A stretch of DNA of 64,000 nucleotides. Origin: Escherichia phage KM01. The notes beneath the pieces were generated by a model. It was given only the letters and a program-made list of their open reading frames with translations. It was not told the DNA's origin and did no database searches. Location: the sequence record PV018827. The stretch is one strand, 5' to 3'. Positions within the stretch are counted from its first letter, which is position 1, and each line of letters opens with the position of its first letter. The position numbers and the translations under genes were made by a program. Of this stretch, positions 43,367 to 45,476 are shown piece by piece.

Positions 43367-45397
43367 TTAACCTCTATTCAATGAACATTTAGGAGAATTA
43401 CAATAAACTTGATTCATAGAACCAAGCGTACAACTTTCAGCATCGCGCCACGGAATCTGCTTAAAACACTCTGAGCAGTACCCGAGGGTCGACCACATTG
43501 CTTTGGTGAAGTCAGTGCTTCGATTTCCATCAAAGCTGACGACAGTTTTGCGGAGAGCTGTTCGTGATTCAGGAAACACACCTGCTTTCTCAGCAGGTTC
43601 CTCCTTTTTTGGCTTAGTTGAGATTGCAAAAATACTGTTGCTACGTTTCTCAACATAAGCATCAACAACATCCTCCAGAGTGATGCCTGTCTGTTTCGCT
43701 GAGGAAGGTAATACAGTCATACGACCGATCATTTCTTCAGTTACACGTAAAGCAAACTCAGGACGACGGGCGTTTGTTGTATCTGTTGCTTTAATCCATA
43801 CATAACCATCTTTGATCGTAGCATTAGATACTTTCTTCTTTACATCTACAGCGCAGACTTTACAGATATCTTCACCACGAAGACGACTAAGTTCTTCATC
43901 GAACTCATTCTCTGTTTTAACTTCACCGCAGATTTCACAAACACCAATAGGAGTTTCCTCCTCTTCTTCATCTTTAGGTTTAGTCAAACCTTCCAGACAT
44001 TCAGGGTGCCAGTAGCATTGATATGCGAAGACTGCTTTAGGTGCATCCTTCCAATCAATATGTTTGTCACAACCACCGCAATCGCCATGAGAGTGTGCTT
44101 CCCAGAATTTACGAGTGATAGTAACGCCATTCTTGTTGACGAAACTATCATTCATATCAAAAGGGATATCATCATCGAAGTCAGCAGTAGTAGACTCAGG
44201 CTCCTTTTTCTCCAGAGATGGGTCAACAAAACAACCTGCTGTGATCACTAAACGGACCATAGCATTGACTTCGGAGATGCAGGATACTGTCCCACGGTAA
44301 ACAATTTTAGGGTCTTTCAGGGCATCCTGATAAGCCTTAATGTCTACGTTATGAACATCACCTTCGATGTACTCTTGAGACTTCTCATCGTAGATATAAC
44401 CAATCATCTTACCACGAGAAGGAACAGCACCGGCAGTTGCATAAGGAACAAACTCATGCGGAGTGATTTCCACAGTCATATCGCGGCGAATATCAATATT
44501 TCGATCGCTTGCGATTTTGTTTTGACTTACCACTGCGTTTCTTCGACGAACGTCTGCCGCTGTCACTCCCGGCTTCGTGTCGTAAGGATTGCTTGTACTG
44601 CTTTTTGAGGAACTTTGATAGTTGCTTTGGCTGTAGTTGTTCGAGTAGTAATTGCCCCAACGATTGACTACCGTAAAAACCGGAAGCTCGTGGGCGACCT
44701 CTTCAACCAGAGTCATGCTGTTGTTTGACATATCAAAGATATATTCTGTACCAACTTTACATTCAAAATGCTCATCAATACGGTTCTTGTGAGATCTAGA
44801 ACGCTTCAGAATCCACATCAACATGTCTTCTTCAGAAGCACCAAACCAATCTCTGTTACAACGTGCGAGGTGGAATGGACGCTCTTCGTTACGGATGATA
44901 TGAAGACGGTTATCAGAAGCATCATGCCAGATTAAGGTGAAAGCACCATCCAGCTTTTGAATAGTCTCTGCTGCACCAATAGTGTTAATAGAGTGGCAGA
45001 TGTTCTCACTGTCTACCTCGAAGTTTTTGCTGTCAGGTAACAGATCTTGGTCCATCAAGGTTCCGTTATGAACCAGAGTGATGTTACCATGTTGGAAAGG
45101 ATGGGCGTTCTTGGCGTTAACTGCACCTTTCGTTGCATGACGGCTGTGACCAACAATCCATGAAGGTGCTACAGTGTAAGCTGTTTCACCAGTGGTGTGC
45201 TTCTTGTACTCATCTTGTAGGATGAATGCGAAAGAAGGAAGAGCTTCTTTATAAGTGAAGACTTCCTTAGTGCTTTTACGCTGACCAAAGATACCGGAGG
45301 AATGTTGTCCTCGGAATACTCCAGCATAAAAGAGTTGGTTGAATACGTCTAAATCAGTGCTTGACAGATTACCGCCAGCTAATACGATGCCACAAAT
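43367..45397 (-). CDS. class-II (Ntn) glutamine amidotransferase domain fused to Cys-rich zinc-ribbon region
   Basis: Track ORF 43367-45058 starts at an internal TTG/ATG; upstream in-frame sequence reads KI-CGIVLAGG...GHSRHATKGAVNAKNAHPF...HNG, a canonical Ntn amidotransferase N-domain with catalytic Cys; no in-frame ATG/GTG/TTG between it and an in-frame TAG at 45401-45403; downstream region has several CxxC pairs. Confidence 0.5.
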   Translation of the reverse strand: MCGIVLAGGNLSSTDLDVFNQLFYAGVFRGQHSSGIFGQRKSTKEVFTYKEALPSFAFILQDEYKKHTTGETAYTVAPSWIVGHSRHATKGAVNAKNAHPFQHGNITLVHNGTLMDQDLLPDSKNFEVDSENICHSINTIGAAETIQKLDGAFTLIWHDASDNRLHIIRNEERPFHLARCNRDWFGASEEDMLMWILKRSRSHKNRIDEHFECKVGTEYIFDMSNNSMTLVEEVAHELPVFTVVNRWGNYYSNNYSQSNYQSSSKSSTSNPYDTKPGVTAADVRRRNAVVSQNKIASDRNIDIRRDMTVEITPHEFVPYATAGAVPSRGKMIGYIYDEKSQEYIEGDVHNVDIKAYQDALKDPKIVYRGTVSCISEVNAMVRLVITAGCFVDPSLEKKEPESTTADFDDDIPFDMNDSFVNKNGVTITRKFWEAHSHGDCGGCDKHIDWKDAPKAVFAYQCYWHPECLEGLTKPKDEEEEETPIGVCEICGEVKTENEFDEELSRLRGEDICKVCAVDVKKKVSNATIKDGYVWIKATDTTNARRPEFALRVTEEMIGRMTVLPSSAKQTGITLEDVVDAYVEKRSNSIFAISTKPKKEEPAEKAGVFPESRTALRKTVVSFDGNRSTDFTKAMWSTLGYCSECFKQIPWRDAESCTLGSMNQVYCNSPKCSLNRG

Positions 45398-45476
45398 TTT
45401 CTAATCCACCTGAAGGGTAAACCCTTTCATCTAATTAACCTTTAAATTGTGCCTCTTTGTCAGAGGCACCCATTGA

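Follow-up and report, generated by a model that had tools for sequence, protein, structure and literature searches.

AUU is a proven, rare start codon of Escherichia coli, used by infC and pcnB, which is discriminated by initiation factor IF3 and from which substantial expression is possible (PMC5499595, PMC3592434). At the E. coli thrS-infC junction, which reads UAA GGU AUU, translation relies in about equal measure on reinitiation and on de novo initiation (PMC3592434). Here we describe a gene for a predicted glutamine amidotransferase of Escherichia phage KM01 (sequence record PV018827), located on the minus strand of the 64,000-nucleotide (nt) stretch analysed (the window), which appears to use the same start codon. 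A second known system is relevant to this locus, namely the free-standing homing endonucleases of phages (T4 seg/mob, HNH_3), in which target-site polymorphism and co-conversion of flanking markers are known. Comparisons among relatives strongly support the ATT directly ahead of the catalytic cysteine codon as the probable translation start of the amidotransferase gene. The start call itself is not new; the recurrence of ATT and ATC starts across the enzyme family, together with a hairpin and endonuclease genes, looks new.

Read on the minus strand from position 45430, the region gives ATG AAA GGG TTT ACC CTT CAG GTG GAT TAG AAA ATT TGT GGC ATC GTA. An earlier note on this DNA had described this frame as MKGFTLQVD-stop-KI-C and had placed the amidotransferase signature upstream of the first canonical start, and both statements were confirmed. 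The first in-frame ATG, GTG or TTG is the TTG of codon 114, and with only AAA and ATT standing between the in-frame TAG and TGT, no canonical start is available there. Among the explanations offered in that note, initiation at ATT, with AGGTGG 8 nt upstream, is supported by the outgroup ATG, by purifying selection and by the starts already in GenBank. ATG TGY GG occupies the position of the ATT in Salmonella phage 7-11, Cronobacter phage GAP52, Proteus phage Privateer and Aeromonas phage 4_4572, and ATG is found at the homologous position in 59 of approximately 76 loci from IMG/VR. The comparison of orthologs, also suggested in the note, gave ATT in all Gordonclarkvirinae records (at least 96) and ATG in the outgroups and in the lineages of two IMG/VR loci (L015 and L016). 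Furthermore, in codons 1–113 compared with SU7, EP335 and ECBP2, the proportion of differing synonymous sites (pS) is 0.66–0.77 and that of non-synonymous sites (pN) 0.13–0.16. With pN/pS of about 0.2, this stretch is therefore translated and under purifying selection.

The N-terminal part of the protein corresponds to a class-II, N-terminal nucleophile (Ntn) glutamine amidotransferase domain, with a Pfam GATase_6 match at 1e-14 and 55.1 bits (cut-off 27) and a GATase_7 match also above threshold at 27.4 bits (cut-off 25). A search of the PDB with the single amidotransferase sequence gave no match and a profile search was required; the family profile matched 1xff, the glutaminase domain of E. 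coli GlmS, at 1.3e-6, as well as PurF and AsnB chains. In the profile alignment, the R, N-G and D motif columns line up with R-W-A-T, H-N-G and D-T-E of GlmS, and R86, N111-G112 and D129 do not vary across the family alignment. We take these Arg, Asn-Gly (oxyanion hole) and Asp residues to have the glutaminase-site roles of their counterparts in GlmS and PurF. The cysteine column (C2) is likewise invariant, with Cys at position 2 in all of the approximately 80 homologs compared, which begin MCG[IL][VI]. Positions 1–2 of the PHROG family profiles align with residues 1–2 of the ATT-started protein, and in the match to phrog_4736 (2.6e-201) profile position 2 is aligned to residue 2. From these matches, the protein is a predicted class-II glutamine amidotransferase with Cys1 as the nucleophile. 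In the C-terminal part, approximately 400 residues rich in Cys-x-x-Cys pairs, no Pfam family was matched and no synthase domain was identified.

The window belongs to Kuravirus. Across this region phiEco32, SU10 and about 70 further Kuravirus coliphages show 97–98% identity, and Suseptimavirus (SU7, ECBP2) and Nieuwekanaalvirus (EP335, KBNP1711) about 71%. In GenBank, phi32_83 of phiEco32 (‘glutamine amidotransferase’; ABY52884 / YP_001671828) and SU10_085 of SU10 (AIF71837) have 2031 nt and begin at exactly this ATT, so the start-codon call is already public. Among the 128 coding sequences (CDS) of phiEco32, 112 start with ATG, 13 with GTG, 2 with TTG and a single one, phi32_83, with ATT. Other orthologs are annotated from a downstream ATG and lack the catalytic Cys, including those of SU7 and ECBP2 (codon 11) and EP335 (codon 59); the records of Vibrio phages VPp1 and 275E43-1 also start at a downstream ATG and omit this residue. 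In the case of EP335, the name ‘aminotransferase-like’ was placed on the neighbouring amidoligase gene. Proteomics of SU10 detected the protein with 9 peptides, and the amidotransferase gene is therefore expressed. The mass given in the SU10 table, 63.8 kDa, is that of the open reading frame (ORF) cut to codon 114/115, and the full-length protein has 76.2 kDa. In the literature searched, outside which the original phiEco32 paper lies, no discussion was found of the ATT start, of its invariant leader or of the family-wide association with a hairpin and with endonuclease genes.

Table 1. Features of the amidotransferase locus and the tRNA gene of the window, with positions counted from the first letter of the window
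Feature	Position	Strand	Remarks
Amidotransferase CDS, phi32_83 ortholog	43367..45397	-	676 codons counting the ATT; uninterrupted until the stop, which ends at 43367
First canonical in-frame start, TTG, codon 114	45056..45058	-	ORF lister: 563-aa ORF
58-nt invariant leader, TTTAAAGG through ATT TGT GG	45390..45447	-	Longest perfect run against SU7, ECBP2, EP335
TGT, predicted catalytic N-terminal Cys codon	45392..45394	-	Would be Cys1 once the initiator Met is removed; CGIVLAGG... follows
ATT (AUU), probable initiation codon	45395..45397	-	Matches the outgroup ATG position; EU330206 and KM044272 annotate the start here
Spacer ATTAGAAA	45398..45405	-	Holds the in-frame TAG (45401-45403), then AAA (45398-45400)
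Leader mini-ORF ATG...TAG, MKGFTLQVD-stop	45401..45430	-	9 codons; translation putative
Shine-Dalgarno AGGTGG	45406..45411	-	Read from the sequence; 8 nt (ATTAGAAA) separate AGGTGG and ATT
Stem-loop AAGGG-TTTA-CCCTT	45413..45426	-	Best local hairpin of the leader fold, -4.6 kcal/mol
Stem-loop GTGCCTCT-GACAA-AGAGGCAC	45449..45469	-	Fold; directly past the amidoligase stop; terminator-like, without a proper T-run
Upstream gene, Amidoligase_2 family (phi32_84 ortholog)	45477..46580	-	Stop 79 nt from ATT
tRNA-Arg(UCU)	54574-54649	-	Sole tRNA gene of the window (ARAGORN); same in phiEco32

The features of the locus are collected in Table 1. The ATG of the mini-ORF (45430-45428) is preceded by AAAGG at a spacing of 8 nt, its TAG ends 3 nt ahead of the ATT, and a single nucleotide (C45412) separates the 3' end of the hairpin from AGGTGG. 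The gene itself is located within a conserved phage cluster (window 42300-48974, minus strand; phiEco32 genes 77-88), whose members include an Amidoligase_2 protein, a COOH-NH2 ligase type 2, a RimK-like ATP-grasp protein and a YtfP/gamma-glutamyl cyclotransferase-like protein.

The conservation of the leader is extreme at the nucleotide level. In approximately 5.1 kb with 70% identity overall, the longest perfect runs are 58 nt against SU7, 58 nt against ECBP2 and 55 nt against EP335, followed by runs of 29–33 nt, and identity across the leader edges goes from 0.75 to 0.98–1.00 and back to 0.75. At least 96 phage records from three genera carry the leader with 99% identity or more, whereas its flanks are only about 70% identical. 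Furthermore, Aeromonas phage BUCT695, from a different family (Grimontviridae), has a 91% identical version in which the mini-ORF, TAG, AAA and ATT are all present. The adjoining synonymous sites are near saturation, and shared ancestry is therefore not the cause; the invariance is best read, from these alignments, as a result of selection, or of very recent and very short conversion. In BUCT695, the mini-ORF (MKGLTLQAD-stop) keeps its length and stop position with two non-synonymous substitutions, and the sole change inside the hairpin falls in the loop.

The 61-nt leader folds no better than its shuffles (z -0.1), and the z of -3.3 obtained for a 121-nt fold is owed to the upstream terminator-like hairpin, whose stem is kept in SU7 and ECBP2 by a different sequence (GCGCTCT...AGGGCGC). 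Rfam, searched at a permissive E-value over 45250-45600, returned far-sub-threshold noise only. A predicted alternative hairpin that would hide the Shine-Dalgarno sequence was dropped, given that both BUCT695 substitutions break its pairing. A homology between the leader and that of GAP52, seen by eye (tagATGAAAGGA...), was not reproduced by alignment and was not used. Finally, the idea that the mini-ORF descends from the C-terminal end of an endonuclease gene (Q-E/V-D-stop) is speculative, since the decayed endonuclease gene of BUCT695 ends ahead of the leader.

IMG/VR loci of the enzyme family were fetched by homology to the enzyme. The codon before the Cys is ATG in 59 loci, TTG in 6, ATT in 9 and ATC in one (L038). 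Five of the nine ATT loci fall in the phiEco32 group, and the remaining four (L032, L034, L037 and L056) represent separate lineages; each ATT or ATC locus has an upstream in-frame stop, a good Shine-Dalgarno sequence and no canonical start. Additionally, a metagenome scan for GGNGGATTAGAAAATTTGTGG, a pattern that includes ATT and so biases the sample, retrieved nine contigs beyond the phiEco32 group (L100, L102, L104-L109 and L114), which encompass about six very different amidotransferase genes (ICGIW..., ICGIH..., ICGLVG..., ICGIFG..., ICGIVG...). Considering metagenomes and IMG/VR together, the spacer ATTAGAAA followed by ATT TGT GG stands ahead of at least eight very different amidotransferase genes. 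A pattern scan of IMG/VR with the start codon left free gave one hit, again with ATT; another sequence from the IMG/VR pattern scans (L099) was discarded as a chance AT-rich match.

In a crude tree built by neighbour joining, lineages with ATT or ATC starts are interspersed with those that start with ATG. BUCT695 (ATT) pairs with GAP52 (ATG) and the phiEco32 group is placed by L015/L016 (ATG), and L037-L039 and L038-L064 are further neighbours. The difference within these sister pairs goes beyond one base and covers the entire initiation region. In ATT/ATC-start relatives, positions -14 to -9 are fixed as GGAGG/GGTGG, and their alleles show a more rigid GGAGGAT at -14 to -8, an A-rich stretch at -3 to -1 and TGT over TGC. 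A compact stem-loop was found in 81% of the ATT/ATC lineages vs 17% of the ATG lineages (Mann-Whitney p 2.5e-6), and in 71% of the ATT/ATC lineages without the motif-biased loci (p 3e-4). These stem-loops usually end at -14 to -16, abutting the Shine-Dalgarno sequence, and their stem sequences vary by lineage; for instance, L107 and L109 have different stems with a common CAAGA loop. Hairpins were compared by energy between start-codon classes, since MAFFT leaves the hairpins of the lineages out of structural register.

At several ATT loci, the ORF that reaches the TAG from upstream (...QED-stop) encodes an HNH endonuclease. Three architectures were observed, HNH_3 with a C-terminal helix-turn-helix (L107, L114, L108 and L038), HNH_3 with AP2 (L105) and a phrog_374 HNH protein (L100), and all three adjoin one identical 21–24-nt tract. 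L100 and L105 share one amidotransferase N-terminus and one junction, gcaGGAGGATTAG, behind unrelated HNH genes (phrog_374 vs HNH_3+AP2), which suggests replacement of the endonuclease at a hot spot. In BUCT695 (L090), a decayed HNH_3-helix-turn-helix gene, unannotated in the record, was identified at 2802-3010 between the amidoligase and amidotransferase genes, immediately ahead of the leader, with 30 N-terminal residues intact, the catalytic core gone and the helix-turn-helix in another frame. Intact genes are present at the site in L107, L114, L108, L038, L117-L126, VPp1 and 275E43-1.

A test blind to the start codon was made by searching IMG/VR with the endonuclease alignment only. The closest homologs (at least 48% identity) have an amidotransferase gene directly downstream in 10 of 10 cases, starting with ATT in eight and ATC in two, and the 70 more distant HNH_3 matches have no amidotransferase neighbour. 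In Vibrio phages 275E43-1 (L197) and VPp1 (L198), the endonuclease gene is also located upstream and the amidotransferase gene starts with ATT. Within this start-codon-blind sample, 12 of the 13 genes just downstream of one HNH_3 subfamily have an ATT/ATC start. None of the three endonuclease types was found within 1.5 kb upstream of the 59 ATG-start or the 6 TTG-start loci (12/1 vs 9/65; Fisher's exact test, p = 2e-8). In the KM01 window, the only HNH_3-like gene is located at 22614-22961 on the minus strand, 23 kb away. It is a phi32_31 homolog of the HNH_3 + AP2 type, and its product shares 34% identity over 116 aa (E 3e-16) with the endonuclease encoded upstream of the ATT-start amidotransferase gene of L105.

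As a whole, the locus is very probably explained by an AUU start, a separate leader ORF and a dedicated initiation region. The initiator tRNA would place formyl-methionine at the AUU (45397-45395), and removal of the Met would then expose Cys1, the predicted Ntn nucleophile. ATG...TAG would constitute a separate 9-codon leader ORF and not a part of the amidotransferase. The initiation region, with its small hairpin, strong AGGUGG, 8-nt A-rich spacer and AUU, may offset the weak start codon. In such an arrangement, the hairpin and the strong Shine-Dalgarno sequence could anchor the 30S subunit or leave the site accessible, and ribosomes ending at UAG may reinitiate at the AUU and compensate for its weakness. 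Given that the stop-3 nt-AUU geometry is as in thrS/infC, coupling of AUU initiation to the mini-ORF would be a reasonable part of the mechanism.

Regarding the origin of the ATT, free-standing HNH endonuclease genes would insert immediately upstream of the amidotransferase start, and the change of the start-codon G to T or C would most simply be a polymorphism of the conserved ATG-TGT-GG-ATH-GT site that arose by co-conversion or confers immunity to the endonuclease. The allele would be kept after loss of the endonuclease gene, in which case KM01 would bear the scar only. Based on the genomic arrangements described above, we see the chances of such an endonuclease-linked origin as evenly balanced. 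A fuller version, which we hold more tentatively, proposes that the HNH_3 subfamily, together with two or more further HNH types, homes to the stretch directly ahead of the amidotransferase gene, and that the target includes the universally conserved Met-Cys-Gly-Ile-Val codons. ATT or ATC would mark alleles with a present or past endonuclease gene. The compensating cassette of hairpin, strong Shine-Dalgarno sequence and A-rich spacer would spread laterally with them, and phiEco32-like phages would be former hosts in which very strong purifying selection keeps the immune, AUU-initiated allele.

Several observations weigh against these proposals. The SU10 proteomics searched a truncated database entry and has no bearing on where the protein begins, and the metagenome sample carries the ATT bias of its retrieval pattern. 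The mini-ORF ATG of BUCT695 has no preceding AAGG, and the reinitiation idea is therefore weakened. The invariance of the leader includes the loop, wobble positions and the 20 nt that precede the hairpin, exceeding the needs of a simple ribosome-binding site, and covariation is uncountable inside the phiEco32 group, given the invariance of the leader. Concerning the endonucleases, the association is correlative and the lineages are phylogenetically non-independent; the endonucleases might also favour ATT-type sites instead of creating them. In Pseudomonas phage UFV-P2 (L199), an HNH_3-helix-turn-helix gene (2201-2620) lies between the amidoligase and amidotransferase genes and the latter starts ATG TGT, the one exception to the association; among the three endonucleases from cultured phages, that of UFV-P2 is the most distant. 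Furthermore, the KM01 window has no endonuclease gene at the amidotransferase start, and with 79 nt from the amidoligase stop to the ATT, none can fit there.

Among the alternatives, a regulatory role survives best, although we regard it as rather unlikely. According to this explanation, the AUU is kept to sense IF3 or the state of host translation, or to set the level of a potentially wasteful glutaminase, the leader is an operator to which a phage or host protein may bind, and the endonucleases are irrelevant. AUU and AUC are the IF3-discriminated starts of bacterial infC genes (PMC5499595), the stop-3 nt-AUU geometry is shared with thrS/infC (PMC3592434), and the abrupt edges of the 58-nt invariance fit a multi-part operator. 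Several ATT lineages without an upstream endonuclease gene point in the same direction. However, regulation leaves unexplained both the 12 of 13 endonuclease-adjacent ATT/ATC starts, against 0 of 59 for ATG and 0 of 6 for TTG, and the identical 21–24-nt tract of unrelated amidotransferases; no regulator is known and Rfam gave no family match. The regulatory and endonuclease explanations are not exclusive, and both can hold.

It is improbable that the 58 nt act at the level of DNA and not of RNA or translation, for instance as a promoter, as the site of a phage sigma factor or as an endonuclease site that gene conversion keeps uniform. The phage does have its own sigma factor and an HNH_3-AP2 endonuclease gene elsewhere, and nucleotide identity is extreme even at wobble and loop positions. 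However, no sigma-70-like site was found on the gene's strand at the leader, and the motif is single in the window, where a search tolerating 3 mismatches located each half of the leader just once in 64 kb. The gp36 element tAATGTAtA has no match in the leader, and the mapped or predicted gp36 promoters (P6, 13, 26, 40, 58 and 68) include none ahead of gene 83 (PMC8948821 and its supplement). On the opposite strand, a sigma-70-like match, TTGACA-16-TACGAT (10/12; window 45361-45388, plus strand), is directed into the leader; it is within chance expectation, and its TTGACA is not conserved in SU7.

Read-through of the TAG from the ATG at 45430, followed by cleavage of a 12-residue propeptide (MKGFTLQVD-X-KI) to expose Cys1, is scarcely credible. 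The earlier note had placed the TAG where a propeptide would be and had raised amber suppression, mentioning that the phage carries tRNA genes. The ATG and TAG are indeed in frame with the amidotransferase, AAAGG stands 8 nt ahead of the ATG, and BUCT695 retains both positions. Propeptides are also known in some PurF enzymes, e.g. that of Bacillus subtilis. However, the outgroup homologs are all Met-Cys without an N-terminal extension, other ATT-start relatives, such as L109, have no ATG in the upstream frame, and both substitutions in the BUCT695 mini-ORF are non-synonymous. TAG is an ordinary stop, terminating 14 of the 128 phiEco32 CDS. Neither in the window nor in complete phiEco32 did ARAGORN find a tRNA with a CUA anticodon. 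A tRNA gene is present, as the note had said, but its plural was overstated, with a single gene (Arg-UCU) in the window and likewise one in complete phiEco32.

The last alternative, to which we give almost no credence, holds that the N-terminal domain is untranslated, with a start at the TTG/ATG of codon 114/115 or later (as used by ORF finders, by the SU7, ECBP2 and EP335 records and by the 63.8-kDa entry of the SU10 paper) and the ATT region as a remnant, mutation or error; it is contradicted by the purifying selection on codons 1–113, where synonymous sites are near saturation, by the invariant catalytic Cys, Arg, Asn-Gly and Asp columns and by the ATT and leader shared by at least 96 genomes. 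The same evidence bears on two further suggestions of the earlier note. A sequencing error is excluded because the same 58 nt, with ATT and TAG, recur in at least 96 independently sequenced phage genomes, and a recent inactivating mutation is refuted by the selection on codons 1–113 and by the sharing of the leader.

These observations have consequences for annotation. Gene callers and many GenBank records truncate the enzyme and lose its catalytic Cys, and many entries are labelled hypothetical; the correct start for such entries would be the ATT or ATC directly before TGT. With E. coli AUU starts extremely rare and limited to infC and pcnB, this phage family offers a natural test set for non-canonical initiation. 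If the causal link is true, a selfish nuclease would push a neighbouring gene to a non-canonical start and drive compensatory evolution of the initiation region. No description of a homing endonuclease forcing its neighbour onto a non-canonical start was found in the literature searched.

Compared with the known systems, the locus is closest to phi32_83 of phiEco32 and SU10_085, which are the same gene with about 98% nucleotide identity and the same ATT-started CDS, without a difference in this respect. It resembles infC in the AUU start, the stop-3 nt-AUU arrangement and the conservation of an unusual codon over long evolutionary distance (PMC3592434, PMC5499595). Unlike infC, the preceding ORF has 9 codons, the hairpin abuts the Shine-Dalgarno sequence, and relatives show a link to endonucleases; moreover, the predicted product is a metabolic enzyme and not an initiation factor, and there is therefore no obvious autoregulatory logic. 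GlmS, PurF and AsnB share with the KM01 protein the Cys right after the initiator and the conserved Arg, Asn-Gly and Asp motifs, and the KM01 protein is set apart by its Cys-x-x-Cys-rich C-terminus of approximately 400 residues, in which no synthase domain was identified, and by its place in the phage amidoligase, COOH-NH2 ligase and ATP-grasp cluster. B. subtilis PurF has a propeptide, and the KM01 protein differs in having none. The relatives of KM01 resemble the known cases of phage homing endonucleases in that the HNH_3 genes are intergenic and adjoin a coding motif of high conservation, one site holds an intact gene in some related genomes, a decayed one in others and none in the rest, different types share the site, and a short tract is common to divergent alleles. 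Unlike those cases, the polymorphism would here affect the neighbouring gene's own start codon and thereby force a non-canonical initiator.

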